Of a DNA stretch of 64,000 bases, positions 25,353-64,000 are shown piece by piece. Source of the stretch: an uncultured Bdellovibrio sp. (GTDB taxonomy: Bacteria > Bdellovibrionota > Bdellovibrionia > Bdellovibrionales > Bdellovibrionaceae); the NCBI GenBank assembly GCA_963932905.1, contig CAWVRN010000002.1, forward strand, positions 192,001-256,000, in the 5' to 3' direction. Each line of letters begins with the position of its first letter. Position 1 is the stretch's first letter. The notes beneath the pieces were generated by a model. It was not told the DNA's origin and ran no database searches. It was given only the letters and a program-made list of their open reading frames with translations. The position numbers and the translations under genes are program-made.

Positions 25353-26051
25353 ATGAATTGGTTTCACGTACTGTTGGCTTTATTACTGCTTTCTTTAAAC
25401 GGTTACGCCAACAATAGGGTTAGTTTATCGGAATATCTGCGTAAATATAGTATTGCCGACCTTCGTCCTACGCAGGCTGCCGTTGGTTTTCGTGAAGTAA
25501 AACGGAAAAAGAACAAAATCGAAAATCTTAAATCACATAAAAATCTGCAAGAGTATTTTGAAGGTAATTCGGTGCCGGTAGTTTTGGGGCCAAATGATCA
25601 AGTCTATATGATTGATCATCATCATTTTACCCTAGCGGCTAGCCGGGCTGGGTATAACGAAGTCTATATTCACATAATTGCCGATTTATCTGCGCTCAAC
25701 ATTCAGCAATTTTGGAAAGAAATGAAATCGAGAGCCTGGGTTTATTTGAAAATTAAAGGTCGCACCATTAGTGAATATATGCTGCCACGATATATTACGG
25801 GATTGGTGGATGACCCGTATCGTGCTTTAGCCGGGAAAGTTCTTCAAAAAGACGGCTTCAAAAAAACGGAAACTCCGTTCGCAGAATTTGAATGGGCTGA
25901 TTTTTTTCGCACGCGTATTTCTTCAGAGTTAGTTGATAAGGACTATACCAGAGCCGTTGAGGTTGCTTTGAAACTTGCAAAGACCGATGCCGCAAAGAAA
26001 CTACCGGGATATAACGGTAACGCGCTTTGCATCGAAGTCTATGCTCAATAA
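25353..26051 (+). CDS. Secreted ParB/Srx-like (ParBc_2-type) protein
   Basis: Signal peptide MNWFHVLLALLLLSLNGYA; LRPTQAAVG, IDHHH, DDPYRALAG, TPFAEFEWADFFR. Confidence 0.85.
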   Translation: MNWFHVLLALLLLSLNGYANNRVSLSEYLRKYSIADLRPTQAAVGFREVKRKKNKIENLKSHKNLQEYFEGNSVPVVLGPNDQVYMIDHHHFTLAASRAGYNEVYIHIIADLSALNIQQFWKEMKSRAWVYLKIKGRTISEYMLPRYITGLVDDPYRALAGKVLQKDGFKKTETPFAEFEWADFFRTRISSELVDKDYTRAVEVALKLAKTDAAKKLPGYNGNALCIEVYAQ

Positions 26052-26126
26052 AAACATAACGTAAAATAGGTATTGAACTGCCATACGACTGTTGAATTTA
26101 AGCCCAAGTTCAAGAATACTTATTGA

Positions 26127-27350
26127 ATGACAAACACCGCGACTACATCAAAAAAATCTATTTATTTTATATTTGCTACGATCATGCTGGATATGATCGG
26201 TATTGGTTTAATCATGCCGGTATTGCCAGACGTAATTAGACGTTTTATTTCTGATCCTGGTCAGGTCACTGAAAATTTTGGATATTTTATCGCAATTTAC
26301 GCAGTCATGCAGTTTGTGGCATCACCTATATTAGGTGGCTTATCTGATCAGTTCGGTCGTCGTCCAATTTTACTTGGTTCTTTGTTGGGTGCCGGTATCG
26401 ATTATATTTTTATGGCTTTAGCGCCGTCGCTGAATTTACTTTTCTTGGGCCGTATTATCGCAGGGCTGACTGGCGCTAGCATGACGGTGGCTAATTCTTA
26501 CATTGCGGATATTTCGGACGATAGTAATCGTTCGTCTAATTTTGGAATGATTGGAGCTGCTTTTGGGATTGGATTTATTGCCGGTCCAATCATAGGTGGT
26601 TTGCTGGGACACTTTGGTCCGCAAATGCCGTTCTACGGTGCTGCCGTATTAAATATTTTAAATTTCTTATTTGGGTTATTTATTTTACCCGAATCTTTGA
26701 AAAAGGAAAATCGGCGAGTTGTTAACTGGAAAAAACTAAATCCGTTCACGACGATCGTTAACACGATGAAAATTCCGGCCATGAGTTTGTTTGTATTAAC
26801 ATACGCATTGTTGTTCCTTGCTGGTAACGTGCATCCAAGCGTTTGGACACTGTACACAGAATCTAAATTTGGTTGGAACTCAATCCAAGTAGGCATTTCG
26901 CTTAGCTTCGTTGGATTAATTTACGGAATGAGCCAGTCGTTGTTAACCTCAAAATTAGTTCCGAAGTGGGGCGAACAAAAATCACTGGTCATCGGAATTT
27001 TCTTTAATGCGTTTGGATTTTTGTTATATGGAATCGCGCCATTTGGTTGGATGATGTATGGGATTATGGTGCTGTCGGCACTACAGGGACTATCGATGCC
27101 GTGTTTGCAATCGATTATGACCAAAAAAGTAGACGTTCGCTATCAGGGAGAATTACAAGGTGGACTGGTTTCTGTTGGCAGTCTCACATCGATTTTAGCG
27201 CCGCTGATTTATACAAATACCTTCAATTGGGGATCCCAATCGGGCGAAATGATGTTGTTAGGTGCGCCTTATTTTGTGGCCACGTTGTTCGGATTGCTCG
27301 CTCTATTTTTGGTTCAAAAAAGCTTGGGAAATAGGCCAGCACAAGTCTAG
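26127..27350 (+). CDS. TetA-like (DHA1/TCR) MFS efflux transporter
   Basis: LDMIGIGLIMPVLP, GGLSDQFGRRP, GRIIAGLTGA, FGIGFIAGP, LPESL, QGELQG; about 12 TMs. Confidence 0.92.
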   Translation: MTNTATTSKKSIYFIFATIMLDMIGIGLIMPVLPDVIRRFISDPGQVTENFGYFIAIYAVMQFVASPILGGLSDQFGRRPILLGSLLGAGIDYIFMALAPSLNLLFLGRIIAGLTGASMTVANSYIADISDDSNRSSNFGMIGAAFGIGFIAGPIIGGLLGHFGPQMPFYGAAVLNILNFLFGLFILPESLKKENRRVVNWKKLNPFTTIVNTMKIPAMSLFVLTYALLFLAGNVHPSVWTLYTESKFGWNSIQVGISLSFVGLIYGMSQSLLTSKLVPKWGEQKSLVIGIFFNAFGFLLYGIAPFGWMMYGIMVLSALQGLSMPCLQSIMTKKVDVRYQGELQGGLVSVGSLTSILAPLIYTNTFNWGSQSGEMMLLGAPYFVATLFGLLALFLVQKSLGNRPAQV

Positions 27351-27517
27351 TTGCGTGGATCATTCCGTCGAGCTTATTGACGGTGACTGTCTGTGACTCA
27401 ATGTAAATCGTTTAGCTAGGCTTGTGTGGTTATATCAAATAGGACTTACTTCAGATTGGAACGGTTATCGCTAGATAAACTCTGGAAATATCAGTCTCGT
27501 TTGAATAGAGGAAGTCA

Positions 27518-29635
27518 ATGCCACAGGCTACGGACCAGCGTCAAAGATTCTTGTCAATCTCAATGTCTATTTTACTGGTCATTTCGCTTCTCGTTTCAGT
27601 TGTCCCTTCGACATCTACGGCTGTCGCTTCAAGCCAACATTGTTCACAATTTTATCGCGGCTTTAAAACAGATGTGTTGTTCGGGATTTCCCCGACAGCT
27701 GGAGTTTATACATCTAGAGCATCCGACTTTGTTTCTGTGAAGAAGGCCATTGAACGTGTGAACGAAGCGGTCAGTTTATCACATAAAAGCCATAAAAAAG
27801 TGTCCATGGCTAATAGTCGAAATTTATTTGTTCTTAGCGAGCAATGGGAACCATTAGCAAGTTCTTTCGCAGCTTATGAAAACGCAAGATTTGTTGTTGC
27901 CGATAAAATGATCGACGCACCCACTGGCACTGTCTTGTACAAAAATGTTCAGTTCGGCTACAAAGGTGTGCAAAAGACGGGACCCTATTTAGATAAATTA
28001 AAAAAATCGGGATTTAAAAATTATGGGACATTGACCTATATTTTGGCAGACGCAATGTCTGGAAAAATATTAGAGGTTGGCGGAATTCATAAGGATCTTT
28101 TGGCCGAATTTAGGTTGCATTTACTAGGACGTGAAGTTCAAGAAAAAGAACTACGACGTTATTCAGAAGTTTATAAGATGATGATCGAGCATTTCCAGCG
28201 ACAGGCAGACGGTCGCGTTGTACTTGCCGAATTTAATAGAAAACGAGGATGGCCAGAAGGATTTGCAGAAAATGCCGGGCTTTTCTACTTAGAAAATGTT
28301 CAGGCTCTAATTGCGTGGGCTCGACAAAACCAAGTAACTCAAGAAGAACTAGTGCGAATGGGTGTTGTTCGTCGTAACTATACCCAGTTAGGAACTCGAA
28401 ACGAGTATTCGATGATATGTTCCCATTCGATAATGATCCCATATTTTTCTCCAAAAGGCGATGTGGTCAAACTTAAAGCGCGACAACTAAAAAAGACTAC
28501 GACAGGTAAAAAGTATCTCGATTTTTCAGAAGATAAAACCATCACCAATGGTAATCAGTTACATCGACGTTTATTTAATTCGGCTGTGTTAAATCATATC
28601 CAAGGCAAACCAGTTATTATTACCGAAGGCGAAATTAAAAGCCTGGTGGCCACACGAATTGGTAAAATTGATACTGTGGCTATTCCTGGAATCAGCCAAT
28701 TTGAAGACGACATGGCTCATGCGCTTGTTGCGGCCAAAGCGTCAGAATATATTGTTGTTTTAGATCGTGATCCTGAAGGTAAAGCATTGATGAATTTGGA
28801 TCATTTGACGGACAGCCAGCGTGCTGCCTACGTTATTGCTGCAAAATTAGAAGAAGCTGGAGCTCCTGTGGTTAAAGTCGGCATAATCCCGGATTCACAA
28901 GGGACTGGTAGTAAAATAGGCCTTGATGATATGATATTACAACACGGCCCTGACAGTGTAAAAGATCTTGTCAAAAATGCTAAGCCACTAAAAGCATATG
29001 CTGAAGCTATTCACGCAGATCAACAAATTGCCGAGAATATAGGGATACAAACGATATTGACTCAAGCTCTACGTGTTGGACATTTAGCAATGAAAAATGG
29101 GTTGGCTTCTGTTGATGCCAATGATGTTCGGATGTTAGAAAAATTTAGATCTCAAGTACTTGCTGATTTTGAAAATCATTTGGCGACTAATTATCCGGGT
29201 TCTCGAAATCTAAGACAACCTACTTATGGATATAAATTTATTCCACCTCAAACAGATCAAATGCCTAATCCAAGAAAATTCAAAGCTCAAGGGGGCGATC
29301 CCGAATTAAGTTTCGGTCGAAAAGACTTTCTGAATGCCATTCTACTGTTTGAAGTTGTCGATTCAAAATCAAGTTTGATAGATAACGACCTGATTGTTGC
29401 GACCAACCAAAAGACACGAGAGCAATTGAAGGTGATTTTTCCAAATGACGAATATGGATTTGCAGAAAATGTCACGATTAGTAAGTCTTTCGGTGGGGCG
29501 ATGGAGACTATTCAGGTTCCTCTGCTGATCTATCGATTGGAATCCCATAAAGTTGTGGCTCTGGCTCGTCCCTCAGAGCTGACCAAACAAGAAGAAAGTG
29601 ACTGGGATTCTGATTTGTTGGCCATGGTCCGTTAA
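27518..29635 (+). CDS. Signal-peptide-bearing protein with a DnaG-like catalytic core/TOPRIM domain
   Basis: SD gaggaag; hydrophobic N-terminus ending AVA; RG...GLFY...LVRMGVV...IMIPY...G.VV...AR...KYL...LFN; ITEGEIK, VAIPG, VVLDRDPEG, KIGLDD. Confidence 0.8.
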   Translation: MPQATDQRQRFLSISMSILLVISLLVSVVPSTSTAVASSQHCSQFYRGFKTDVLFGISPTAGVYTSRASDFVSVKKAIERVNEAVSLSHKSHKKVSMANSRNLFVLSEQWEPLASSFAAYENARFVVADKMIDAPTGTVLYKNVQFGYKGVQKTGPYLDKLKKSGFKNYGTLTYILADAMSGKILEVGGIHKDLLAEFRLHLLGREVQEKELRRYSEVYKMMIEHFQRQADGRVVLAEFNRKRGWPEGFAENAGLFYLENVQALIAWARQNQVTQEELVRMGVVRRNYTQLGTRNEYSMICSHSIMIPYFSPKGDVVKLKARQLKKTTTGKKYLDFSEDKTITNGNQLHRRLFNSAVLNHIQGKPVIITEGEIKSLVATRIGKIDTVAIPGISQFEDDMAHALVAAKASEYIVVLDRDPEGKALMNLDHLTDSQRAAYVIAAKLEEAGAPVVKVGIIPDSQGTGSKIGLDDMILQHGPDSVKDLVKNAKPLKAYAEAIHADQQIAENIGIQTILTQALRVGHLAMKNGLASVDANDVRMLEKFRSQVLADFENHLATNYPGSRNLRQPTYGYKFIPPQTDQMPNPRKFKAQGGDPELSFGRKDFLNAILLFEVVDSKSSLIDNDLIVATNQKTREQLKVIFPNDEYGFAENVTISKSFGGAMETIQVPLLIYRLESHKVVALARPSELTKQEESDWDSDLLAMVR

Positions 29636-29784
29636 GGACATAGCCTTGGCCAGGTATTGCGTCAAAAGATGGCCAAGTTTTATTAGTAATTCGCAAAAAA
29701 TCCCGAACGCCTATGGTTATAACTAAACAGTTTTGACATTAGTATTTTAGCTCTAATATGATCACTCTATCTAAATAGGGGTGT

Positions 29785-32028
29785 GTGATGAAATTATTGG
29801 TGGGGTTATTTCTATTAACAATGAATGTCTTTGCATTAGATTCACGGACTAAGCCGCCGGCAGAAAAGCCACCGGCAGATCGTTCTGCTGATGTAAACCG
29901 AGTGAATGTATTCGCAAATAAGAATTCGCTAGATCAAGTCCTTGGAGATCAAAAATTCCAAGAACGATTTGCCGCCATCACCGGTCCTTTAGAACAGCAA
30001 TGGCCAGCCATCACAACGGATTTGAAAAGTCGCTTCAGTCGTGAAATTGACCGCTACAATTTTTCAACTGTGTTTGGTCTTCAAGGAAATAAACTAAAAA
30101 TTCTGGGCGGTAATGTCGCCGAGATCGAAACAAATATTAAAAACTTTCAAATTTCTGCAGACGCATACTACCGCTTAGAATTAAAACCTTCGTTCCGTGA
30201 AGGTAAACAAATGCGTAAAGATATCTATGTGATTGGTTTGAAAGGATCGAGCACGATTTCGATCGGTTCTGAAGTCAGAATTACTTTCTTCCGTGAATTT
30301 GATTCAAAAGCCGATGCCTTATCAAATTTAAAACCGTACGGTTTGGACCGTATACCTAAAAGTTCGGCAGATTTAATTAAGAAAATTAATATCGATGACG
30401 GTGTTCGCGTAGAAGTAATGGGAAATTTAGAAATTTCGAAAGAGTTTAATAAAATCGCGAATAGTTCAAACTTGTCGGCGATCTTGGGTTACGACTTGTT
30501 TCAAGGCCTATTCACGGCCGATATCTATCGCTACACGGAAACTGATGTACGTGCGCGTTTCATGGGAACGATCAATCGGGGTACAGTGAAAGCAAAAGCG
30601 GGTTTGAACTGGCTGTATAGCTTTAAAGGAGCGAAGATTTTACCACGATGGTTAAAAGAGTTATTTGAAGTGAATTTAGATGTTAATATTTCTAAGTCGT
30701 TTAACTTTTTCGATAGGTATCCTATCGAAACTCACGTTGCTGATTACTATTTTAGATTTAACAATATGACGTTGATACAAGCTTCAGTTCCACCGGGTTG
30801 TAACTTTCAAGTTCCAACGGGTATTGCCTCTATTGATAGCGCAGGATTAAGCCCTGAGGCGGCGTTTGACGAAGTTCTTCATAATGTTCGTAGTGGTAAA
30901 TTCATGGCTGTCTTTAATCCTAATCTCGAAGAGTCTGCATTGTCAGCCTCTTTCCTAAGAAATGCCTCTCGAGCGGAAACCATAGCCTGTGTGGATGCCT
31001 CGTTGCCAAATTATAAAAAACGCGTACAGCATTTTTTCAAGGGCCGCATGTTGTCTGATGTGTTCTCTTTGAACTTTGGTCCTAAGATCAGTCATTTGCT
31101 ACGTAGTACTCAAACAGAAGGAAATTCTGAAGTGTATGTGGCCTCACTAGAAAGAGGACAAGAATTTAACTACTACATTTTGCTAAATACCGCGACGAAG
31201 ACTGAAAATTCGTTTTTATTTGGCCGGTGGGAAAACGAATACGAATCAGATTTGGATGCTTTATATCAATCGGACAAGGAAAAAAATATTCGTGGGTTTT
31301 TGGATTTCGTAAAGCGTATTCAGTACCGTGACAAAGTAATGTCGACGTCTAAATTAAGTGAAATCCGCGACATCCTAGCAAGATCAATCCCGACGAATTT
31401 TCCAGATAGAAATAAATTGTTGGATTTGGTTCCAAAAACAGAACAACGTGATGCGTGGATTTCTTTTGTCTACACATTGTCTAGTCGGGTTATTTTTGAA
31501 TTAGAAAAAATGGACAAATTGGTTTTGTACACGAAGTTAGCTAACTTCGTTGCAAATCACCCAGAAAGAAATCGGATGGGTTTGCCATCCGATAATAACG
31601 AGGGTGGTGAAATGAATCAGACTGAATATATCAATGAGTTATACTATCGCTTGGTGAAATTAACGGATTCGACTCAAAATTCAAAAGATCGTTTTCGAGC
31701 GTTAGAACAATTGATGAAAGACCGGATTTTCACTGAATATATATTCCGAGAATTCTTTCCATCATTGATTACGTCAGATATCGCCAATAATGAAATGAGT
31801 GTGGCAATGAGTGTAACCTCAAAAGATATCACTTTGGCTGAAGATCGTATCGGTAACAACCAATACTCCCAAGTCTACAGTGCTGTTCTGCTACTACGAT
31901 CGATCCTAAATGATAGATCACTAGATATCCGTTTAGAAAGCGCCACTGCGGCGGATCCGTCGGCGGACGCTGTATCTGGTCCTAATTCCTCGAACCCAGT
32001 TAATATGAAGGGCTTCAAAGTGTTTTAG
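29785..32028 (+). CDS. Large secreted hypothetical protein
   Basis: Signal peptide MKLLVGLFLLTMNVFA; 747 aa, mixed beta and alpha; no family recognised. Confidence 0.8.
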   Translation: MMKLLVGLFLLTMNVFALDSRTKPPAEKPPADRSADVNRVNVFANKNSLDQVLGDQKFQERFAAITGPLEQQWPAITTDLKSRFSREIDRYNFSTVFGLQGNKLKILGGNVAEIETNIKNFQISADAYYRLELKPSFREGKQMRKDIYVIGLKGSSTISIGSEVRITFFREFDSKADALSNLKPYGLDRIPKSSADLIKKINIDDGVRVEVMGNLEISKEFNKIANSSNLSAILGYDLFQGLFTADIYRYTETDVRARFMGTINRGTVKAKAGLNWLYSFKGAKILPRWLKELFEVNLDVNISKSFNFFDRYPIETHVADYYFRFNNMTLIQASVPPGCNFQVPTGIASIDSAGLSPEAAFDEVLHNVRSGKFMAVFNPNLEESALSASFLRNASRAETIACVDASLPNYKKRVQHFFKGRMLSDVFSLNFGPKISHLLRSTQTEGNSEVYVASLERGQEFNYYILLNTATKTENSFLFGRWENEYESDLDALYQSDKEKNIRGFLDFVKRIQYRDKVMSTSKLSEIRDILARSIPTNFPDRNKLLDLVPKTEQRDAWISFVYTLSSRVIFELEKMDKLVLYTKLANFVANHPERNRMGLPSDNNEGGEMNQTEYINELYYRLVKLTDSTQNSKDRFRALEQLMKDRIFTEYIFREFFPSLITSDIANNEMSVAMSVTSKDITLAEDRIGNNQYSQVYSAVLLLRSILNDRSLDIRLESATAADPSADAVSGPNSSNPVNMKGFKVF

Positions 32029-32055
32029 TAAACAGGGTCACTAATTATACAAATG

Positions 32056-32085
32056 AAAAAGCCACCTTGCGGTGGCTTTTTTTTT
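32056..32085. terminator. Bidirectional rho-independent terminator
   Basis: aaaaaGCCACC-ttgc-GGTGGCttttttttt between convergent genes. Confidence 0.88.
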
Positions 32086-32088
32086 AAC

Positions 32089-33867
32089 TTATTCAAAAGT
32101 TCTAGTTCGTCTTTGTGTTGGTGCTGCTGAATCGCCTCGGCGTGGAGGTGGCATTGAACCACCGCTACGAGGACGACGACTGTAGCCGCCTCTTTCACCG
32201 CCGCGTGCTTCACTGCGCTCGCCGCGACCCTCAGTGCGTTCAGCACGTTCTGGGCGATCACCACCGCGATCATCGCGATCACGGAATGATGTTGGCGCTT
32301 CTTCACCGCGTTTAGCGAAACGGTCTTTGGCAAAATGAATGGCTGTTGAACGTTCACGACGACGGTCACCGCGCATAAAGCTTGGACGTGAATCGGTACG
32401 AGGGCCACGACTACCATACCCGCCAGCTTTGAAGTTTGGATCCATTTCGCGAGGAATACGACCATTCAAGAAATCAAATGGCACTTCATAATCAGATGCC
32501 GACGCATCGACTTTAGAAGCCAAGAATTTAAAGATTAATTCTTCTTTAGTTAATTCATTCAATGCTTGGAATTCAGACGTAGCTTTGAAATTTTCTTTCA
32601 AAGTTGGAGTCAATCCACCCGCTTTTAAATTTAAAACAGCTTCACTGGCTGACTTTAATTTGTGATTTAAAACTTCAGATAACGTTGGGATGTTACCTTT
32701 GATCAAGTTAGCTTTAGTTTTCTGTTGAACTGTTTTTAGTAAAGACAATTCACGCGGAGAAACAAGAGTATAAGAGAAACCTGTTTTACCGTTACGGCCA
32801 GTACGACCAATACGGTGAACATAAGATTCAACATCCCATGGTAAATGGAAATTCACTACGTGTGTTAAATCAGGAATATCTAAACCACGAGCGGCAACGT
32901 CAGTTGCCACGATAACTTTAACTTCTTGGCTCTTGAAACGTTTTAAAGTCCACTCGCGCTCTTTTTGGCTCTTATCACCATGAAGAGATTCAACATGGTA
33001 ACCACGTTTGTTTAGCTCTTGTTCGATCTGAGCACATTTGATTTTAGTTTCGCAGAAAATGATTCCGTAGAAATCATTTAAAGCATCTAACAAGTGAGTT
33101 AACGCTTTTAATTTCAAATCTTCTTTTACCGTGAAGTAAAGCTGAGTGATTTGCTCTGATAAGTTACCTTTTCTTTGAACTTCAACCATTGTTGGATCAT
33201 TCAAATATAAGCTAGTGATCTTTTTGATCGCTGGGCTCATCGTTGCAGAGAATAACCAAGTTTTGCAACCCGCGCGACGTTGTTTGCCACGTGGTTGATC
33301 TTCGTCTTGATCAGCATCATCTTTAGATGCTGATTTTTTCTCGGCATGAGTTTGCGCCAAGATTTCTTCTAAAGAATCACGGAAACCCATAGAGATCATT
33401 TCATCCGCTTCATCCAAAACCAAAGTCTTTAATTCGCGAATGTGGAATACACCTTGATCAAGCAAATCGATCAAACGACCTGGGGTCGCTACGATAACGT
33501 GCGCGCCACGACGTACATCTTCGATTTGTGTGCGATAGCTAGCACCACCGTAGATCGCTGCTACTTTCATTTTTTTGAATGATGAAAGCGTTTTTAATTG
33601 CTCAACGATTTGTAATGCTAATTCACGTGTTGGACTTAGGATCAAAGCTTGTGGAACTTTTTTCGCCATATCCAAATGCTCGATCATTGGTAGACCGAAT
33701 GCGGCTGTTTTACCAGTGCCTGTAGCGGCTAAACCGATAAAATCGCCTTCATGTTTTAATAATATTGGGATTGCTTTTGTTTGAATTTCTGTCGGAGCGA
33801 CGAAACCAATGCCTTCCAAATGTTTGATTAGCTCAGGCGATAAGCCTAAGTCTTCGAACGAACTCAT
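32089..33867 (-). CDS. DEAD-box ATP-dependent RNA helicase (DeaD/CshA-like)
   Basis: Q motif, ATGTGKT, PTRELA, TPGR, DEAD, SAT, ARGLD, HRIGRTGR; Arg/Gly/Glu-rich tail. Start MSSF at 33867 has SD gagg. Confidence 0.96.
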   Translation of the reverse strand: MSSFEDLGLSPELIKHLEGIGFVAPTEIQTKAIPILLKHEGDFIGLAATGTGKTAAFGLPMIEHLDMAKKVPQALILSPTRELALQIVEQLKTLSSFKKMKVAAIYGGASYRTQIEDVRRGAHVIVATPGRLIDLLDQGVFHIRELKTLVLDEADEMISMGFRDSLEEILAQTHAEKKSASKDDADQDEDQPRGKQRRAGCKTWLFSATMSPAIKKITSLYLNDPTMVEVQRKGNLSEQITQLYFTVKEDLKLKALTHLLDALNDFYGIIFCETKIKCAQIEQELNKRGYHVESLHGDKSQKEREWTLKRFKSQEVKVIVATDVAARGLDIPDLTHVVNFHLPWDVESYVHRIGRTGRNGKTGFSYTLVSPRELSLLKTVQQKTKANLIKGNIPTLSEVLNHKLKSASEAVLNLKAGGLTPTLKENFKATSEFQALNELTKEELIFKFLASKVDASASDYEVPFDFLNGRIPREMDPNFKAGGYGSRGPRTDSRPSFMRGDRRRERSTAIHFAKDRFAKRGEEAPTSFRDRDDRGGDRPERAERTEGRGERSEARGGERGGYSRRPRSGGSMPPPRRGDSAAPTQRRTRTFE

Positions 33868-34055
33868 AGTACCTCTTTCGAACAAGTCGCAACTTGTTCT
33901 TATGTGCTAGAGGGCATCTGAGTCGGCTTCACTATGTCACGTTTTCAAACGCTCTCTTTAATTAGTAGAGCGCAATCTACAGTAATAATTGGGAAATTCC
34001 CAGTTATTAAATTACTTTGTCTTTTTTATCGGGTAAAAATGAGAAAAAACAGTCT

Positions 34056-34778: not shown

Positions 34779-34820
34779 GGCTTAATTATTTATCAAAATA
34801 GTCGAGTTTAAAAGAGAAAA

Positions 34821-35738: not shown

Positions 35739-35740
35739 AA

Positions 35741-36034: not shown

Positions 36035-36041
36035 AGGATGT

Positions 36042-56345: not shown

Positions 56346-56495
56346 AGAAGAATCTCCTTGATGAAAACTGGCTTCTATTAAAGCGGTTATTCAGCGTTTT
56401 GCAACAAGTTAAGCGTAAAGAGATGCTTTAAGAAGTTTATTGTCATTATTTTTAACTCCCTATATATTTTAGGGGCAACTCAAAGGGAGGCTGAT

Positions 56496-57470
56496 ATGGT
56501 TTTTGGTTTTTTTAAGAAGCAGATGCTTGATGTAATCGAATGGCCAGATGAAGCACCCGGAGTTTTAGCATACCGATATCCAATGCAAGATCGTGAAATT
56601 CAAAACGGTGCTCAATTGACGGTTCGTCAAACCCAGTTGGCGTTATTCGTAAACGAAGGGGTAGTTGCGGATTTATTTGGTCCTGGAATGCACACAGTGG
56701 AAACACGCAACTTACCAGTGCTTACTAATTTGCAAAACTGGGACAAGATGTTCCAATCGCCTTTTAAATCTGATTTGATTTTCTTTTCTACGAACGAACA
56801 AATCGATCAAAAGTGGGGAACGGCGTCGCCCATCACTGTGCGGGACAAAGATTTCGGTGTAGTTCGTATTCGTGCATTTGGTACATTCAGCTATCGCATT
56901 AAGAACCCAAAAGTGTTTTACCAAAAGCTCTCTGCCAACAAAGAAATTTTCATGGCGGGGGATCTAGAGGGCCAATTGAAATCAACAATCTTAACGTCGC
57001 TGGCGACCTACTTTGGGAAATCTCAAGTTTCTTTCTTGGATATGGCCGCTCACCAAGAAAACTTCTCGCAGACATTGAAAACAGAATTAGCTGATGATTT
57101 TGAAAATTATGGTTTAAGCTTGGAGTCTTTCTATGTGCAAAGTGTATCGTTACCTGAAGACGTTCAGGCACAAATCGACAAAATGGGTTCAATGAAAATT
57201 ACGGGCGATATGAAACAGTACACTCAGTTTCAAGCAGCCGATAGTTTGACTAAAGAAGGCAATGGTAGTTCGGCTGGTGTTGAGCTGGCGACGGCACTTG
57301 CATTAGGGCAAAATGTAGCTAAATCGATAGGCTCAGGTGAAGCCAGTGGACCGACGAATGATGATGTCTTAAAAACAATCGGTCAATTGCATGATTTAAA
57401 AACTAAAGGCGTAATTTCAGAATCTGAATTCGAAGCTAAAAAAGCAGAACTGTTAAAGCAAATCAAGTAA
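56496..57470 (+). CDS. SPFH/band-7 (YdjI-like) protein with C-terminal SHOCT domain
   Basis: DVIEW, GAQLTVRQTQLALFVNEG, RAFGTFSYRI; C-terminal LHDLKTKGVISESEFEAKKAELL. Confidence 0.88.
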   Translation: MVFGFFKKQMLDVIEWPDEAPGVLAYRYPMQDREIQNGAQLTVRQTQLALFVNEGVVADLFGPGMHTVETRNLPVLTNLQNWDKMFQSPFKSDLIFFSTNEQIDQKWGTASPITVRDKDFGVVRIRAFGTFSYRIKNPKVFYQKLSANKEIFMAGDLEGQLKSTILTSLATYFGKSQVSFLDMAAHQENFSQTLKTELADDFENYGLSLESFYVQSVSLPEDVQAQIDKMGSMKITGDMKQYTQFQAADSLTKEGNGSSAGVELATALALGQNVAKSIGSGEASGPTNDDVLKTIGQLHDLKTKGVISESEFEAKKAELLKQIK

Positions 57471-57481
57471 AAGGAGTTTTT

Positions 57482-58687
57482 GTGGACACTAAAACAGCAG
57501 ATAAAACACGCATTGATGATATTTTTTCTACGGAAACTATTAAAAAAGATTTAGCTTTGCCCGATGCAAATCAGCAACTTCAAGCAAGCCCTAATGTTCA
57601 AGCGAACTTGGAAAACAAAGCGACTGAATTCATCGACCGAATTATGAATTTAAATCCGCAAGACTACAAAGGTCGCGAAGACAACAAGGCGGCCGTTGAT
57701 ACATTTGGTTTAGATTTGCAGCGTGAGGCCGCTAAGAAAAGTGAATTATTAAAACAGCCAGTTAAAAAATTGTCAGATCGTTCGCAAGAAGGTGGTGAAG
57801 TTGCTAACTCGCTGATCAATTTGAAATTAAAAGTAGAAGAATTAGATCCAGCTAAGTTTAATTTTGAACCAGGATGGGTTTCAAGAACTCTTGGATTTCT
57901 TCCCGGAATCGGCGATCCACTAAAAAAATATTTTTCAAAATTTGAATCGGCTCAGGACGTAATTGCCGCTATCATCAAGTCACTTGAAAATGGTCGCGAT
58001 CAATTGCAGCGTGATAACATCACGTTGACGGAAGATCAAAAAAGTATGCGCGAGATCAGCGACAAGTTGACTCAAATGATCGCTTTATCACAAGTGATCG
58101 ATAACAAACTTCAATACAAATTAGAACGCGAAGTTGCGCCGGGATCTGATCAGCATAAATTTTTGAGCGAAGAGATTTTGTTCCCACTTCGTCAACGTAT
58201 CATCGATTTGCAGCAGCAGTTAGCAGTCAATCAACAGGGCGTGATAGCAACTGAAATCATCATGCGTAATAATAAAGAATTGGTGCGCGGGGTGAATCGC
58301 TCGTTAAATGTGACCGTCAGTGCTTTGCAAGTAGCAGCTACCGTTGCTATGGCATTAGCTAATCAAAAAATCGTGCTTGATAAAATCAACAGCGTTAACC
58401 AGACGACTAATGACCTTATCGCGGGAACCGCATCGCGTTTGAAAACTCAAGGTGTGGAAATCCAAAAGCAGGCCTCATCAGCAAGCCTAAACATGGATAC
58501 ATTAAAAGTGGCCTTTCAAGACTTGAAAACGGCGATGGATGATATTTCTACTTTCCGTCAGAAAGCCCTTCCTCAGATGGCTCAGGCTGTAATTGAAATG
58601 GAGAAATTGACTACGGAGGCGCAGGCGTCTATAGCAAAAATGGACAAAGGTAACCAAGCTAAACCGACACTAGCCATTGATACATAA
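57482..58687 (+). CDS. Toxic anion resistance protein, TelA/KlaA family
   Basis: LKLKVEELDP, KYFSKFESAQ, LQRDN, RQRIIDLQQQLAV, NNKELVRGVNR, ALANQKIVL. Confidence 0.88.
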   Translation: MDTKTADKTRIDDIFSTETIKKDLALPDANQQLQASPNVQANLENKATEFIDRIMNLNPQDYKGREDNKAAVDTFGLDLQREAAKKSELLKQPVKKLSDRSQEGGEVANSLINLKLKVEELDPAKFNFEPGWVSRTLGFLPGIGDPLKKYFSKFESAQDVIAAIIKSLENGRDQLQRDNITLTEDQKSMREISDKLTQMIALSQVIDNKLQYKLEREVAPGSDQHKFLSEEILFPLRQRIIDLQQQLAVNQQGVIATEIIMRNNKELVRGVNRSLNVTVSALQVAATVAMALANQKIVLDKINSVNQTTNDLIAGTASRLKTQGVEIQKQASSASLNMDTLKVAFQDLKTAMDDISTFRQKALPQMAQAVIEMEKLTTEAQASIAKMDKGNQAKPTLAIDT

Positions 58688-58702
58688 GGATTTGAGGTTT
58701 CA

Positions 58703-59734
58703 TTGAAGACAAGTTTCAATATTGAAAAAATTGAATTAGACAGCAATCGTAAAGCACAGATTTTAAAAAAGATCCCACTCATGGCCAGCAAAAAAGTTCT
58801 TGTCGTGGGTGATGTGGGCCTAGATGAATATATTATCGGCGCTGTGAAACGTATTTCCCCTGAAGCTCCGGTTCCTGTGATGGATGTTGAATCTGAAGAA
58901 AAACGCCTAGGCTTGTCAGCAAACGTAGCCCAAAATATTACAGCTTTAGGCGCCCAAGTCGGCATTCTATCGGTCGTTGGAAACGATTTTGGTGCAGATT
59001 TATTAAAACCGCTATTCAAAGAAGCTAAAATCCCTTGGGATCTTATGCAGGTCGATGATTCTCGTCCGACAACGCGCAAATCGCGTGTGATGGCGGGACC
59101 TCATCACATCGTTCGTATTGATTATGAATTAAAAAAATATTTATCGGAATCAGTTAGCGCGCGCGTGTTTAAAGCCTACTCCGAGGCGATCACCCAATAT
59201 GATGGAGTGATTTTGCAAGACTACGCTAAAGGTATTTTCGACGAGACGTTGATTCAAAAAATGATCGATGAAGCCAATCGAGTAAAGGTGCCGGTATTCG
59301 TAGATCCACACCGTACGCAACCATTAGGTTTCTACCGTGGTGCTTCGTTATTTAAACCGAACTACGATGAATCATTAGTTCTTGCGGGTTTCAATTTTGA
59401 AGACCTTCGCGAGAATCCAAATAAAGTCTATGAAATCGGACAAACTTTACAAAAAAAGTTGAATACTAAAGATATCGTTATTACTCGAGGTAAAGAGGGC
59501 ATGACGATTTTCTCGGGTGAAAGAATTACCGAGGTTCCGACGTTTGCTAAGCGAGTATTCGATGTTACGGGTGCTGGGGATACAGTTATTGCGACTATAG
59601 CGCTATCACAGGTTGCGGGCTTTTCATTAAATGAATCTTGCCTATTAGCAAACGTGGCTGCAGGCAATGTCGTTAGCAAAGTAGGCTGCGTGCCCGCTGA
59701 CCTGAAAGAGATGATTGAATTTATTTCACACTAG
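58703..59734 (+). CDS. rfaE1: D-glycero-beta-D-manno-heptose-7-phosphate kinase (HldE domain I, stand-alone)
   Basis: VVGDVGLDEY, RISPEAPVPV, LQDYAKG, VFDVTGAGDTV. Confidence 0.92.
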   Translation: MKTSFNIEKIELDSNRKAQILKKIPLMASKKVLVVGDVGLDEYIIGAVKRISPEAPVPVMDVESEEKRLGLSANVAQNITALGAQVGILSVVGNDFGADLLKPLFKEAKIPWDLMQVDDSRPTTRKSRVMAGPHHIVRIDYELKKYLSESVSARVFKAYSEAITQYDGVILQDYAKGIFDETLIQKMIDEANRVKVPVFVDPHRTQPLGFYRGASLFKPNYDESLVLAGFNFEDLRENPNKVYEIGQTLQKKLNTKDIVITRGKEGMTIFSGERITEVPTFAKRVFDVTGAGDTVIATIALSQVAGFSLNESCLLANVAAGNVVSKVGCVPADLKEMIEFISH

Positions 59735-59767
59735 CTTTTTGAGTCGAAAACAGGCATACCTCTGGGC

Positions 59768-60934
59768 ATGCAAACAGAGTCTCAAACTACTGAAACTGAA
59801 GCGGTAACTGCGTCTAGCGCAGTGCCAAGTTCTAGAAACTTCTTCGCCCTAACTTTGGGTGATTTAGAGGCTCTTTTTAAGTCTTTCGGTAAAGAAAAAT
59901 TCCGCGCACAGCAAATCTACAAATGGGTCTACGATAAAAACGTGACTGATCCAGAACAGATGTCGAATTTATCAAAAGACTTCCGTGTTGAATTGAAAAA
60001 CATGATTCAGTTCGACCTTCCTAAAGTGGTTAAACATTTAGTCAGCAAAGACGGCACTCAAAAATTCCTATTTGATGTAGGTGATGGCAAAACGGTTGAG
60101 TCCGTAGTTATTCCAGCGGAAGATCGTCAAACATTGTGTATCTCATCCGAGGTGGGCTGTAATATGGCCTGCAAGTTTTGTTTTACTGGAAAACAAAAAT
60201 TGCAAAAGCGTTTAACGGCTGACCAAATCGTTGGTCAGTTCTTGCAGGTTCAAAGAGCAATGCCGGAAGGCCATCGCTTGACGAATGTTGTGTTCATGGG
60301 GATGGGCGAGCCTTTAGATAATTCAGATGAAGTATTTAAAGCGATCGAAATTTTGAATTCGCCATGGGGAACTAATTTTTCTCGTCGCCGCGTAACTGTG
60401 TCTACATCAGGTATCGTTCCAGAAATGCATAAAATCTGGGAAAATAAAACTCGTCTCGCGGTCAGTTTGAATGGGTACGATGATGAAAACCGTACTTCAA
60501 TCATGCCGATCAATAAAAAATACCCGCTGAAAGATCTATTAAAAGCGTGTGAAGTGTACGCTAAAGAAACGGGTGAGCGTGTAACGTTTGAATACGTTTT
60601 GCTTAAAGGGATCACGGATCAACTTGAACATGCAGAAAAATTGTTTCATTTAACGAAGCACATTCCGTGCAAGATCAATATTATCCCATTCAATGAACAT
60701 CCCGGTTCAGGGTTTGAACGTCCATCTGATTCGCAAGTAATGAAGTTTCAGCAATTGCTGATCGGTAAAGGTGCGCACGTATTGTTACGTCGTACGATGG
60801 GTCGTGATATTTTTGCAGCTTGTGGACAGTTACGAAGTGAATTTGAAAGTCATCCACAGCAGATGGACACGTCGAATTCCAAATTGATTCGTACTTTACA
60901 TTTAAAATCTAATTCACTATCGTCACATACATAA
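59768..60934 (+). CDS. rlmN: Dual-specificity 23S rRNA/tRNA m2A methyltransferase
   Basis: CISSEVGCNMACKFC, VFMGMGEP, EYVLL, IFAACGQL. Confidence 0.96.
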   Translation: MQTESQTTETEAVTASSAVPSSRNFFALTLGDLEALFKSFGKEKFRAQQIYKWVYDKNVTDPEQMSNLSKDFRVELKNMIQFDLPKVVKHLVSKDGTQKFLFDVGDGKTVESVVIPAEDRQTLCISSEVGCNMACKFCFTGKQKLQKRLTADQIVGQFLQVQRAMPEGHRLTNVVFMGMGEPLDNSDEVFKAIEILNSPWGTNFSRRRVTVSTSGIVPEMHKIWENKTRLAVSLNGYDDENRTSIMPINKKYPLKDLLKACEVYAKETGERVTFEYVLLKGITDQLEHAEKLFHLTKHIPCKINIIPFNEHPGSGFERPSDSQVMKFQQLLIGKGAHVLLRRTMGRDIFAACGQLRSEFESHPQQMDTSNSKLIRTLHLKSNSLSSHT

Positions 60935-60960
60935 ATTTTAAAAAACAGAAGGGGACTTGA

Positions 60961-61884
60961 ATGTCACAATTATTAGTTGTTGGATCACTTGCCTATGATT
61001 CAATCCAAACTCCGTCCGGAAAAGCAGATAAAACTTTAGGCGGTTCAGCTAACTATTTCTCTTTGGCAGCCAGCTTATTTGCCTCTGTGCGCGTTGTCGG
61101 CGTAGTGGGTGAAGATTACTCTCAGGCTGATAAAGAAATGCTACTAGCGCGCAAAGTAGATCTATCTGGCCTTGAAACAGTTCCTGGTAAGACATTTCAC
61201 TGGGAAGGCAAATACGAAGGCGATATGAACGAAGCTAAGACGTTAAAAACAGAATTGAATGTGTTTGAACACTTCAATCCTAAGTTACCGGCGTCGTTCA
61301 CGGAAACTCCATTCGTGTTCCTTGCGAACATTGCTCCTGAATTACAAACTCAAGTTCTATCGCAAATCAAAAGTCCAAAATTCGTTGGTATGGATACAAT
61401 GAACTTCTGGATTCAATCGAAAAAAGAAGCGTTGTTAAAAGTTCTAGCTAAAGTGGACGTTGTTTTGATCAACGAAGGTGAAGCAGATCAATTGACAGGC
61501 GCTAAGAATGCGATCGAAGCGGCTCCTAAAATCTGCGCGATGGGTCCACAGTACGTAGTTATCAAGCGTGGTGAATACGGTTTTGTATTGTACTCTAAAA
61601 CGGAAGGTTTCTTCTTATTGCCGGCGATGCCAGTACCTAACGTTGTTGACCCAACTGGCGCGGGAGATACGTTTGCGGGCGGCTTCTTTGGTTACTTGAC
61701 TTCATTCAACCAAAAACCAACATTTGAAGATCTTAAAAAAGCGTGTGTAGTCGGAACAATGTGTTCCAGCTTCACAATCCAAAACTTTGGCGTGAAGGCG
61801 ATCGTTGAAGTGAATAAAGAAAAACTTAAAGCCCGCTACGCCGAATTCAAAAAATCAGTGGGCTTAATCGAACCAAGTCTTTAA
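60961..61884 (+). CDS. PfkB/ribokinase-family sugar or nucleoside kinase
   Basis: VGSLAYD, LGGSANY, DPTGAGDTFAGG. Confidence 0.9.
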   Translation: MSQLLVVGSLAYDSIQTPSGKADKTLGGSANYFSLAASLFASVRVVGVVGEDYSQADKEMLLARKVDLSGLETVPGKTFHWEGKYEGDMNEAKTLKTELNVFEHFNPKLPASFTETPFVFLANIAPELQTQVLSQIKSPKFVGMDTMNFWIQSKKEALLKVLAKVDVVLINEGEADQLTGAKNAIEAAPKICAMGPQYVVIKRGEYGFVLYSKTEGFFLLPAMPVPNVVDPTGAGDTFAGGFFGYLTSFNQKPTFEDLKKACVVGTMCSSFTIQNFGVKAIVEVNKEKLKARYAEFKKSVGLIEPSL

Positions 61885-61887
61885 AAA

Positions 61888-61940
61888 GGTGCCAGGCTAC
61901 ATTTACGGACGCCCTGCGTCCGTAAATGTAGCCTGGCACC
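61888..61940. repeat. Perfect 25-bp inverted repeat (REP-like hairpin or bidirectional terminator)
   Basis: GGTGCCAGGCTACATTTACGGACGC-cct-GCGTCCGTAAATGTAGCCTGGCACC, flanked by an A run and a T-rich run. Confidence 0.9.
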
Positions 61941-61949
61941 CTTTCTTTC

Positions 61950-64000
61950 TTATTTGCCGCCGTAGAAGCGGATGCAGAGAATGTTTGAACTGCGTATATT
62001 GTTTAGGTCTTTTTCTAAAGCGTTTGCTTTTTCTGATCTTGGTACGTATTTTTGTTTGTCAAAAATCGAAGGGACCGAGTTTTTAACAGTTCCCACCGGG
62101 ACAAGTTTGGCTTCAGTGGCTAATAGTTGAATCATGTCTTCTGGGCGGTAGCCTGCTTTGCCATACGCTTCTTCATTTGTGAGATTGTCTTTTTTCATTT
62201 TTTCGCGACGTTTTTCTGCCATAAAAAACGCGACTTCTGGAGAACCCATTGAAGTTCCACTGATTTCGGCCCTTTGGTCATTGAACTGCAGAGCCTTGTG
62301 GCTGCGAACCATATCTGTTGTTTGTATTAGTAATGATCTTAGCATTGCAAATTCTTCGAAAGGAATTTGCATTCTTTCCATGGCATCAGCTACGCGCGAG
62401 TCCGAGTCATCAATCCCAGACATAAATCTTTGAGCTCTGAAGACTTCAGGATAACGAGCTTTAATCATCGTGTTCGACATATATAAACTGTATCCCATCG
62501 CACCCGAGTTTATGTTTTCTCCGCGAGCCATGAATTGAGCGTTTTCAGTGAAGATCATATTTGAAAAGCCTGAACGGTTGCCGTCTTCATTCGCGCTCAT
62601 TACGATCGCAATGTTAGAAACTTTTTCACCAGGCAAAGGACCCTCACCTGGAAGTTTATATTTTTCCAACCATTTAGGACGTAAATCAGCCGGGAAATCT
62701 GACTGTGTCGTTCCATCACCGACATTGTTACTATTACCAGCAGCCATAAAATAAAGAGTGTTTTTTCCGTGAGTCGCAAGACCCTCAGCAATCATATACT
62801 TTTGGAACTCGTTAAAAATAAAATCCATTTTTGAAGCTAGTTTTTCTTCAGGAGTATCTAGGGTCGCGTGGCGGGAAGGGAAACTAGATTCACCACCCAA
62901 TGAAAGATTGCCAATCGGACGTTTTGCCATTGCATCGTCTTTGAAGCGTTCAATCAAGTTTAAATGAAGTTCAAGACCAACCATGCCTCGTTGAGACGCC
63001 ATAGACATTAAGTTAGGTCCAAATTTTTGCGTCATGAATTTAGCTAATTTTTGAATATCTTCTTGGGTGTCTATCGATTTAGGCAAATTGGCGCGGCCTT
63101 CTGCCGTTTCTGTGATGCCATCTTTTTTTAAAGTATCAAAAATAGCGCGTGCCACTACCGGTTTTTGAAACCAGGCATTAAGTAATTCTAGATTTTTTAT
63201 TACCATTTCTTGTTGTACTTGAACGTTGGCACCGATAGCACCCAAACCAACCCGAGCACCATCAGCTACGTAACCTTTATTTAAATAAGCTTCGCCTGTT
63301 GTGGCAACGTGAGTTCCATGAAATTCTGCCTCTTTGTGCATGTCAGGCAGTTTTGTGCGCATGACAAATTTTCTATAAAGTGAACTCTCGCCAGGAATCC
63401 AGGGCGCACGTCCTTTTTCTTCAATTTGTTTCAAGATGACTTCGAAGTTTTTGTTTTTAGTGCCTTCGTAAATAAATTTTCTAACCAAATCCAAGCTAGC
63501 TAACTGGCCTTTGATTTCATTTATTTCCGCAAAGTTAGTTTGTGTCGCTGGATCTTGTAACATCGTCGCTAAAACACCCGTGTAAACGTTGAAAGCGCGC
63601 TCGATAATTTGATCCCAAGTAGCACCTGGGTAAACGGCTTTCATTTTTCGTAACGCCAGATAGAAATCATTAGACGGATTGTAAATTTGAGTTCCTAATT
63701 TTTTGAACGCAATTTGTTCTGATAGTTTTGCCATTGTATAGGCACCCACCAATTTCCTTGGTGTGTTTGTTTCAAAGTGATGACCTTTAAAATAGGTTGC
63801 CTGAACACCGATTAGTTTTTTCAAAGACGCACCTAGACCGGTTTCACCACCGACACTGAGTGCTTTATCAACGGTTGCTTGAAGTTCCTTTAATCCTTTT
63901 AATCTTTCTAATTCAAACAAAGATAAGAAGTCAGGAAGACCTGCATCAGATGACATAATCCAAGATGTTGCCGCAAACTTTAACAATGACGCATCTTCAG
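61950..64000 (-). CDS. S8 subtilisin-like serine peptidase, 5'-truncated by the window edge
   Basis: HGTHVA, NLSLG, AAGNS, ISGTSMGSP; frame stays open to the window end. Confidence 0.88.
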   Translation of the reverse strand, partial: EDASLLKFAATSWIMSSDAGLPDFLSLFELERLKGLKELQATVDKALSVGGETGLGASLKKLIGVQATYFKGHHFETNTPRKLVGAYTMAKLSEQIAFKKLGTQIYNPSNDFYLALRKMKAVYPGATWDQIIERAFNVYTGVLATMLQDPATQTNFAEINEIKGQLASLDLVRKFIYEGTKNKNFEVILKQIEEKGRAPWIPGESSLYRKFVMRTKLPDMHKEAEFHGTHVATTGEAYLNKGYVADGARVGLGAIGANVQVQQEMVIKNLELLNAWFQKPVVARAIFDTLKKDGITETAEGRANLPKSIDTQEDIQKLAKFMTQKFGPNLMSMASQRGMVGLELHLNLIERFKDDAMAKRPIGNLSLGGESSFPSRHATLDTPEEKLASKMDFIFNEFQKYMIAEGLATHGKNTLYFMAAGNSNNVGDGTTQSDFPADLRPKWLEKYKLPGEGPLPGEKVSNIAIVMSANEDGNRSGFSNMIFTENAQFMARGENINSGAMGYSLYMSNTMIKARYPEVFRAQRFMSGIDDSDSRVADAMERMQIPFEEFAMLRSLLIQTTDMVRSHKALQFNDQRAEISGTSMGSPEVAFFMAEKRREKMKKDNLTNEEAYGKAGYRPEDMIQLLATEAKLVPVGTVKNSVPSIFDKQKYVPRSEKANALEKDLNNIRSSNILCIRFYGGK

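Follow-up and report, generated by a model that had tools for sequence, protein, structure and literature searches.

Why should three unrelated proteins encoded in one stretch of a bacterial genome carry the same few residues at the very end, or just past the beginning, of the mature polypeptide? The question is raised by 64,000 nt of an uncultured Bdellovibrio sp. (Bdellovibrionaceae), referred to below as the window (G000:C2:192001-256000, with G000 as the genome), in which a ParB-like nuclease and an S8 subtilase-like protein terminate in a short cysteine-aromatic motif, and a primase-like protein shows it directly after its predicted signal peptide. All three motifs were confirmed in the sequence. 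The original prediction, made from the window alone, had taken them for a portable tag that is usable at either end and lies outside the catalytic domains of Sec-exported proteins with cytoplasm-type folds. Such a tag is indeed borne out genome-wide: about 70 Sec-exported proteins of this genome bear it.

A cysteine motif at the ends of exported proteins

The genome (4.55 Mb in 58 contigs, 40.7% G+C), whose nearest named records are the metagenome-assembled genomes (MAGs) Bdellovibrio sp. 28-41-41 and Bdellovibrionaceae bacterium UBA2316, was translated into a crude, self-made proteome consisting of the longest open reading frames (ORFs) of at least 80 aa, with overlaps removed greedily. This gave 4190 ORFs covering 91% of the genome, the starts of which are possibly over-extended. 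Signal peptides were predicted by own heuristics, both by eye and with a stricter rule.

The pattern C..[FV]Y (a dot standing for any residue) was present 116 times in the ORF set, whereby 34 occurrences fell into the last 14 residues, against 3.55 expected, and 36 more started at residues 20-39, directly past signal peptides. The strict form C..FY occurred 81 times. The last 14 aa accounted for 30 of these and aa 16-60 for 33, leaving 18 for all other parts of the proteome. Among 26,499 gapped three-residue patterns, it ranked first at C-termini (30 against 0.75 expected, Poisson P 3e-37), and the runners-up N.C...Y and N.C..F lengthen the motif to N-x-C-x-x-F-Y. Within aa 17-56, C..FY was second (33 against 2.6 expected) behind a lipobox-like pattern. 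The tag is therefore enriched at the termini of exported proteins over background, and chance, which the original prediction had left standing with its three or four short matches, is refuted as an explanation. No excess was seen in the ORF set at a spacing of 1 or 3, nor for any non-cysteine residue at position 0, so that the geometry is strict: both the cysteine and a spacing of exactly 2 are required.

A DNA repeat or a terminator at gene ends was excluded as the source of the motif by its codons. Synonymous codons are mixed in the C-terminal tags in roughly genome-like proportions (TGT 22/TGC 14, TTT 16/TTC 14, TAT 24/TAC 12), which points to selection on the protein. At the DNA level, the pattern AAYNNNTGYNNNNNNTTYTAY (AAY NNN TGY NNN NNN TTY TAY), which is blind to dialects of the tag, matched the genome 68 times at the right spacing as opposed to 18 times each at spacings 1 and 3. 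Against the control with one extra codon (spacing 3), the census gave 372 versus 236 matches summed over nine other genomes of the same genus (g1; hereafter congeners) and 222 versus 208 for 15 genera of the family outside g1. Since the census cannot see variants, relatives were sampled at the protein level instead (see below).

A terminal C..[FV]Y defined a set of 75 carrier ORFs, 43 of them with the tag near the N-terminus. Three are regarded as chance members (a nucleoside diphosphate kinase, a membrane spermidine synthase and a DUF4423 protein). The core reads C-x-x-F-Y with V sometimes in place of F; Asn often stands two residues ahead of the cysteine, and S and N predominate at positions -1 and -2. 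In N-terminal tags, the cysteine follows the hydrophobic core of the signal peptide at a median distance of 11 residues (range 8-23) and in 27 of 40 cases is found 3-5 residues past the final AxA-type site. In the C-terminal tags (n = 32), 0-6 residues (mode 2) separate the tyrosine from the stop, which places the cysteine 5-11 residues from the end; K, R or G are frequent at +5/+6, and basic residues often occur past the tag. By these positions, the tag is never more than about six residues away from a free end, and its N-to-C orientation is constant. Nearly all carriers of a C-terminal tag have an obvious N-terminal signal peptide by inspection, and the stricter heuristic found one in 51 of the 75 carriers compared to 1106 of the 4190 ORFs overall.

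The tag cysteine is mostly on its own. It is the sole cysteine of the mature protein in 38 of the 75 carriers, including proteins of 937, 1290 and 872 residues, and outside the tag the cysteine frequency is 0.16% compared to 0.96% genome-wide and 1.07% in other exported proteins, i.e., an approximately six-fold depletion. The cysteine count is odd in 50 of the 75 carriers, as opposed to the other exported proteins, which favor 0, 2 or 4, as expected for disulfide pairs. An intramolecular partner was ruled out, since the second cysteine is scattered among the 20 carriers that have two. Overall, the tag thiol is extra and unpaired, and other cysteines have been purged. Cysteine depletion is a familiar property of substrates that cross an outer membrane unfolded.

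Conservation, dialects and cargo

Three tagged families were followed through the nine congeners. Orthologs of the GDPD carrier are present in eight of them (58-78% identity), all with a cysteine tail, which in seven takes the form C-x-x-[F/Y]-Y (CLNFYRK twice, CMGFYR, CTQFYY, CSAFYR, CLRYYN and CLRYYK), while the eighth, in G004, has a degenerate tail (CLKNY plus 8 residues). The primase-like protein has orthologs in seven of the nine at only 29-31% identity; all seven have a signal peptide followed by a tag (CVQFY, CIEVY twice, CVGFY, CVDFY, CIHYY and CYSIY), and the flanks of the tag diverge. Orthologs of the subtilase-like protein (38-44% identity) are likewise found in seven of nine. Two of these loci are cut by contig ends, and all five readable C-termini carry the tag (CQRFY, CLKIY, CINFY twice and CIRVY).

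Outside the lineage the extension is missing, in line with the expectation of the original prediction that homologs elsewhere would lack the tail. GDPD homologs of other genera and families (23-32% identity) end about 12 residues earlier without any tail, and seven of the nine that were read have a leader-like N-terminus. Among the 120 best homologs listed for the ParB-like protein, the tail is present in 11, which are close relatives (52-95% identity) with signal peptides; one of them is labeled by its source as a Bdellovibrionaceae MAG. The cytoplasmic relatives end in LPGW[C/S]GP. The cysteine of that ending was tried as a family-intrinsic origin of the tag cysteine and rejected: it alternates with Ser and aligns to an N/K of the tagged proteins, and the tag cysteine lies five residues further on, in the added extension. 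The tag cysteine is thus not a conserved structural residue, which had been named as a way in which the prediction could fail. By these comparisons, the tag is conserved while the rest of the protein diverges, and it was appended to domains that go without it elsewhere.

Six related genomes (G007, G004, G017, G016, G040 and G028) were sampled at up to 400 kb each, with ORFs read piecewise. In the congeners G007 and G004, the tag density is about the same as in G000: the G007 sample contained two C-terminal tags and two past signal peptides, plus a CVSIY variant, and the G004 sample contained one and three, respectively. In a post hoc comparison of terminal with body cysteine sites, F-Y followed at 3/49 versus 1/629 sites in one of these genomes and at 3/58 versus 1/925 in the other. 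A different dipeptide was found in genus g20 of another family (f5), to which G040 and G028 belong and in which a homolog of the subtilase-like protein ends in CLGLF. In the 400 kb of G040, L-F was the commonest +3/+4 pair at terminal cysteines (5/70 versus 4/796 body sites, post hoc), for example, CASLF, CPNLF, CSKLF and CSALF past signal peptides and CGGLF at one C-terminal end. C-x-x-L-F was then a prior hypothesis for G028, where it occurred at 6/55 terminal and 2/724 body cysteine sites (Fisher P 2.4e-6), with CRDLF, CHKLF and CKYLF past signal peptides and CEGLFR, CGVLFHP and CSELF at protein ends. The layout, consisting of a lone cysteine and two hydrophobic residues at +3/+4 near either end of exported, effector-like proteins, is hence common to at least two families of the order, with the dipeptide differing between them.

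Pfam domains were recognized in 36 of the 75 carriers. They include MGDG synthase/GT1, two PLD, acyltransferases, APP1 phosphatidate phosphatase, GDPD, a glycerol-3-phosphate oxidase-like DAO, C92 amidase, two S41 and two S9 peptidases, a papain-like C1, a deformylase, two ABC1 kinases, a PPDK_N-type ATP-binding domain, GNAT, UDPGP and RelA_SpoT. Others are ParBc_2, Metallophos, the ADP-ribosyltransferase ADPrib_exo_Tox, PARP and PhoD. Moreover, two giant proteins consist of a ClpB-like AAA+ part fused to an M41 peptidase. The tagged proteins of the relatives, which are again cysteine-poor, include a 2100-aa ABC1 kinase, a PNK3P+PhoD protein, Macro, MoxR AAA+ and Fic. Much of this cargo needs ATP, NAD, nucleic acids or other cytoplasmic substrates that the periplasm does not offer, which supports action in another cell; the site of action is most likely the cytoplasm or membrane of that cell.

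Some individual carriers deserve mention. The two AAA+ fusions, L058 (G000:C30:13797-17669, 1290 aa) and L066 (G000:C35:1562-5200, 1212 aa), each combine a signal peptide and a C-terminal tag with a ClpB-like AAA+ part and an FtsH-type M41 domain; L058 contains one cysteine only, and an exported ATP-dependent protease is odd in itself. Carrier L042 (G000:C16:3667-4461; 264 aa) has a signal peptide followed by CIGFY and no Pfam match. It contains a thioredoxin-like motif, W-x-x-Y-C-P-D-C, near residue 215, by which it could be a tagged oxidoreductase.

Carriers in the window and the search for a machinery

The positions of the three carriers of the window and of their tag-bearing segments are collected in Table 1. 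The ParB-like protein belongs to Pfam family PF08857 (E 3.8e-50; 170.5 bits with the cut-off at 23.6), whose model it covers at positions 3-157 of 158. It shares DHHH and other invariant columns with 30 homologs in the alignment, while its signal-peptide segment is absent from the cytoplasmic homologs. Its C-terminus, GYNGNALCIEVYAQ, finishes with NALCIEVYAQ (Cys codon 26028-26030). The AlphaFold2 (AF2) model of this protein has a confident domain (mean pLDDT 90.8) followed by an unstructured extension, whereby the pLDDT drops from 59 to 40 over the last 12 residues. A short helix at residues 226-231, modeled with low confidence, starts at the tag cysteine and is not packed against the domain.

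Table 1. Tag carriers of the window with their predicted signal peptides and tag cores.
Feature	Position	Strand	Details
ParBc_2 (ParB-like nuclease) gene	25353..26051	+	232 aa; C-terminal tag carrier; Pfam PF08857
Predicted Sec signal peptide, ParB-like protein	25353..25409	+	aa 1-19, MNWFHVLLALLLLSLNGYA then N; predicted from sequence
C-terminal tag core C-I-E-V-Y, ParB-like protein	26028..26042	+	aa 226-230, then A-Q and stop
Primase/Toprim-like gene	27518..29635	+	705 aa; N-terminal tag carrier; weak primase-model matches
Predicted signal peptide, primase-like protein	27518..27628	+	aa 1-37, ending LLVISLLVSVVPSTSTAVA then S
N-terminal tag core C-S-Q-F-Y, primase-like protein	27641..27655	+	aa 42-46; 4 residues past last AxA-type cleavage site
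S8 subtilase-like gene, 3' part	61950..64000	-	C-terminal tag carrier; gene extends 763 bases past window end
C-terminal tag core C-I-R-F-Y, subtilase-like protein	61962..61976	-	then G-G-K and stop

The primase-like protein matched its models below their cut-offs: DNAG_N at 20.8 bits (cut-off 26), Toprim_3 at 19.9 (27.2), TIGR01391 dnaG partially at 47.4 (283.6), and DUF3854 weakly, below the Pfam cut-off. By these scores, the protein resembles a primase/Toprim core without being a DnaG. Its N-terminus reads MPQATDQRQRFLSISMSILLVISLLVSVVPSTSTAVASSQH-CSQFY-RG, with a predicted cleavage at STAVA followed by SSQH-CSQFY (Cys42, codon 27641-27643) and 15 residues between the end of the hydrophobic core and the tag cysteine. 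The full gene of the subtilase-like protein (G000:C2:253950-256763) encodes 937 aa beginning with a typical signal peptide, MRNRFNVLLSLLLTVSFTLNSYA. It matches Peptidase_S8 (PF00082) with 27.8-28.4 bits against a cut-off of 21.8, covering only model positions 113-264 of 288. The mature protein has a single cysteine, located in the C-terminus SSNILCIRFYGGK, which finishes with NILCIRFYGGK (Cys codon 61974-61976).

A fourth, weaker match had been proposed for SFCDDFL in the 186-aa exported, coiled-coil-like ORF 11533..12093 (-). It has Leu at the position of the invariant Tyr and lies 13 residues from the end, and it is not a member of the set. This ORF adjoins an astacin-family (M12A) metalloprotease with a lipoprotein-type leader at 12099..12887 (-). 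Immediately upstream of the tagged ParB-like gene is a MotA/MotB stator pair (23407..25278, +), and a major facilitator superfamily transporter (26127..27350) lies between the ParB-like and the primase-like gene. Directly downstream of the latter, an untagged exported protein of 747 aa without a Pfam match is encoded at 29785..32028 (+).

Across the genome, the carriers are mildly clustered: 8 pairs lie no more than 2 genes apart, where 2.3 would be expected (P 0.0025). A systematic pairing of N-tagged with C-tagged neighbors was considered and discarded, since the pairs within 2 genes (CN 4, CC 2 and NN 2) are a random mix. Near a few carriers are found a DUF4423-type family and an adjacent family of about 350 aa, both regulator-like. 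Repeated pairs of a DUF4423 protein of about 270 aa with one of about 350 aa occur at G000:C41:4160-8800, C16:54200-56200 and C3:179476-185200, some of them near carriers, and one DUF4423 copy has a chance C..FY near its end. None of the four secretins of the genome (one of a type II secretion system, PilQ and two Tad-like) looks unusual. PilQ shares a contig with two carriers. The type II cluster (G000:C14:43684-49610, with a GspE-like protein of 562 aa, a cysteine-free secretin of 783 aa and a GspC-sized protein of 313 aa) adjoins the N-tagged carrier L037, possibly by coincidence.

Concerning thiol chemistry, Thioredoxin_2 matches number 6-10 per genome in the genus and 2-6 in the other genera searched, and three of those in G000 are DsbD-sized. 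This excess fits a periplasm that has to manage many lone thiols; it is no proof of a link with the tag. The window itself encodes a full DsbD-type thiol:disulfide interchange protein (DsbD_N, DsbD_TM and thioredoxin domains) at 21458..23260 (-), a locus 2 kb upstream from the tagged ParB-like gene.

The statement of the original prediction that no characterized pathway was known for such a tag has held: the libraries searched contained neither a paper nor a curated model for it. A scan of 72 tag-bearing end segments against NCBIfam, with E-values up to 1, gave no shared family and no sorting-domain model, and the same search with four proteins of the window gave no sorting-domain model either. 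The string 'CxxFY' did not occur in the literature searched, and the papers retrieved on secretion signals, motifs and prey-directed proteins of Bdellovibrio described neither such a tag nor a second-step sorting signal.

Possible roles of the tag and comparison with known systems

The reading preferred here, with moderate confidence, is that the motif is a lineage-specific terminal tag whose lone thiol serves to pass cargo, once exported by Sec, into a subsequent step of sorting or delivery; the second export, attachment or prey-delivery step proposed by the original prediction would be such a step. After Sec export and cleavage of the signal peptide, the tag might form a short amphipathic turn, one face of which would present Cys, F and Y (i, i+3 and i+4). 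A shared receptor, either periplasmic or in the outer membrane, would dock the two hydrophobic residues and engage the thiol, in a mixed disulfide or another thio-linked step. The cargo captured by it would then be exported, displayed on the surface or delivered into prey. The low cysteine content would keep the cargo free of disulfides and translocatable. A +3/+4 pair that differs by lineage, F-Y in this genus and L-F in the other family, is what would be expected if tag and receptor co-evolve.

Several observations weigh against this reading. Examination of the neighbors, the secretins and the Dsb-like genes linked no receptor, enzyme or transporter to the tag, and no conserved neighbor or paralog family recurs convincingly beside the carriers. 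A genus-specific DsbA-like receptor was rejected as a candidate, as Thioredoxin_4 is present in 2-3 copies in the genus and 1-6 elsewhere. The higher Thioredoxin_2/DsbD count is only suggestive, since it shows no link with the tag and is partly a matter of genome size. No tag was present in the samples of two other genera of the family (G017, 400 kb; G016, 267 kb), which implies that it is no general route for Bdellovibrio-type predators. In addition, the predatory lifestyle is taken from the names of related MAGs, and some carriers (S41, S9, GDPD and PhoD) could simply be periplasmic housekeeping enzymes.

Tentatively, the tag could couple its cargo to a modular delivery system, in which one common carrier or translocator binds some 70 otherwise cysteine-free effectors by a disulfide to their single terminal cysteine, with the hydrophobic pair one helical turn away as a guide. 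Release would follow in the cytoplasm of the attacked cell, which is reducing. This would be an AB-toxin-like or Mia40-like thiol relay for many cargo proteins in a bacterial predator, with F-Y and L-F as lineage-specific dialects of tag and receptor.

A covalent anchor is doubtful. The tag cysteine would then be lipidated, or joined to the envelope through a thioether or disulfide, and would keep the enzymes on the membrane, the surface or vesicles, with F-Y being recognized by the modifying enzyme. The cysteine is invariant, unpaired and situated at a flexible end, often with basic residues past the C-terminal tag, and many of the cargo enzymes act on membrane lipids (PLD, GDPD, APP1, acyltransferases and the MGDG synthase-like protein). 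MYXO-CTERM, with an invariant cysteine that is predicted to be lipidated (PMC11980579), would be a precedent. However, there is no hydrophobic helix past the tag, so that the cysteine is not kept at the membrane, unlike that of lipobox and MYXO-CTERM substrates, and in N-terminal tags its distance from the hydrophobic core puts it outside a lipobox. Moreover, an anchor leaves unexplained both the strong loss of other cysteines and the outside display of ATP-dependent enzymes.

It is distinctly unlikely that the lone thiol is a redox latch, which tethers or silences dangerous enzymes in the oxidizing periplasm by disulfide bonding with a holder protein or a small thiol, frees them in a reducing compartment, for example, the cytoplasm of the target, and so controls activity and not sorting. 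Active sites as varied as those of the carriers are hardly open to inhibition by a single short tag that lies outside the catalytic domain. Although most of the cargo is potentially self-harmful (nucleases, ADP-ribosyltransferases, Fic, phospholipases and proteases), the tag thiol is unpaired, and the genus has more thioredoxin-fold and DsbD-type genes than its relatives, with one DsbD in the window, the tail makes no contact with the domain in the AF2 model, and no conserved holder gene stands beside the carriers.

The TonB and TolB boxes of colicins are short linear import boxes on disordered ends, and the tag, also a short linear motif on a disordered end, could by analogy be read on the target side, hijacking an import route or, in the manner of CaaX-type effectors, a host lipid transferase to bring the enzymes into or onto prey or host. 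Eukaryote-type domains in the cargo (PARP, ABC1, APP1 and RTC4-like) and the lack of any producer-side machinery among the genes examined would agree with this. It is nevertheless quite improbable, because lineage dialects (F-Y versus L-F) fit a partner in the producer better than a conserved factor of the target, the cysteine is off the CaaX position, and N-terminal copies exist. Finally, that there is no biological tag at all but only chance, a DNA repeat, a gene-calling artifact or an inherited structural cysteine, as the crude ORF set and the few initial matches might suggest, is hardly conceivable in view of the excess at both ends (30 against 0.75 and 33 against 2.6), the mixed codons, the DNA control (68 against 18 and 18), the conservation in orthologs at 29-44% identity and the missing extension in relatives outside the lineage.

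If the sorting reading is true, the tag gives a handle on which Sec-exported proteins of Bdellovibrio-like bacteria stay in the periplasm and which reach the surface or the prey, and it predicts a cargo list from sequence alone. This list would be a catalog of candidate antibacterial effectors, including AAA+ proteases, kinases, Fic, ADP-ribosyltransferases, the ParB-like nuclease and the primase-like protein, and the two dialects would be a natural experiment in the co-evolution of a tag with its receptor.

Among known systems, the C-terminal domain (CTD) of the type IX secretion system (T9SS), GlyGly-CTERM with rhombosortase, and type II secretion are cases in which Sec-exported cargo carries an extra, portable signal for a second step across or onto the outer membrane (PMC4804311, PMC13393428). 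The T9SS signal, however, is a folded beta-sandwich domain of about 80-100 residues, GlyGly-CTERM is tripartite with a helix, and type II signals are conformational, whereas the tag is a linear motif of 5-7 residues with a lone cysteine that may stand at either end. The tripartite sorting signals (LPXTG, PEP-CTERM, GlyGly-CTERM and MYXO-CTERM) do not describe it either, since the 0-6 residues past the Tyr in the 32 C-terminal tags leave no room for a helix.

Of the known systems, MYXO-CTERM of Myxococcota comes closest; it is likewise a short end signature with an invariant cysteine on many Sec-exported proteins. It is described as lineage-specific, found on dozens of Sec-exported proteins per genome, predicted to be lipidated, and thought to act through modification of the cysteine followed by type II export and surface display (PMC11980579). 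MYXO-CTERM is exclusively C-terminal and composed of the motif, a transmembrane helix and an Arg-rich cytoplasmic tail; the tag differs in having at most six residues past the motif, no hydrophobic helix, and over half of its copies at the mature N-terminus.

With the lipobox recognized by Lgt/Lsp, the tag shares an invariant cysteine near the signal peptide, the thiol being the site of chemistry in the lipobox. There, the conserved residues precede the cysteine ([LVI][ASTVI][GAS] at -3 to -1), and the cysteine comes directly after the hydrophobic core and ends up as residue +1. The tag, in contrast, has its conserved residues at +3/+4 and its cysteine 8-23 residues past the core, and it has C-terminal copies. 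The genome's own lipobox pattern, F-x-N-C or L-x-S-C, is separate from it. At aa 17-56, no pattern was more enriched than F.NC (34 against 2.4 expected), in keeping with a preference of the lipoprotein-like signal peptides for an unusual lipobox that has Asn at -1 (F-x-N-C, F-Q-N-C). An example in the window is ORF 7910..8440 (+), with AIAVAFVNC, and ends of the type FQN-C or FNN-C were also seen in the samples of G004, G007, G016 and G040.

The CaaX prenylation box, like other terminal lipidation signals of eukaryotes, likewise consists of a cysteine and hydrophobic residues near the C-terminus and is portable between unrelated proteins. It has the cysteine exactly fourth from the C-terminus with two aliphatic residues next to it, and it is exploited by some effectors. 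The tag departs from it by a cysteine 5-11 residues from the end, an invariant Tyr at +4 and the N-terminal copies.

The nearest mechanistic analog is the docking signal of Mia40 substrates (MISS/ITS) in the mitochondrial intermembrane space, by resemblance and not by membership. In this signal, the docking cysteine and the hydrophobic or aromatic residues found one helical turn from it belong to an amphipathic segment of small, otherwise unfolded cargo. Once the cargo has passed a general translocon, the receptor oxidoreductase traps it in a mixed disulfide. The strict i, i+3, i+4 spacing of the tag would give a docking face of this type, and the AF2 model has a helix starting at the cysteine, only at pLDDT 40-59. 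Unlike the Mia40 substrates, which are small and have paired CX3C/CX9C cysteines, the tagged proteins are large bacterial enzymes with a cysteine on its own, and neither a Mia40-like nor a dedicated Dsb-like receptor was found in the genome. Overall, the tag is apparently undescribed and would represent a new kind of bacterial sorting signal that needs neither a transmembrane helix nor a folded domain.

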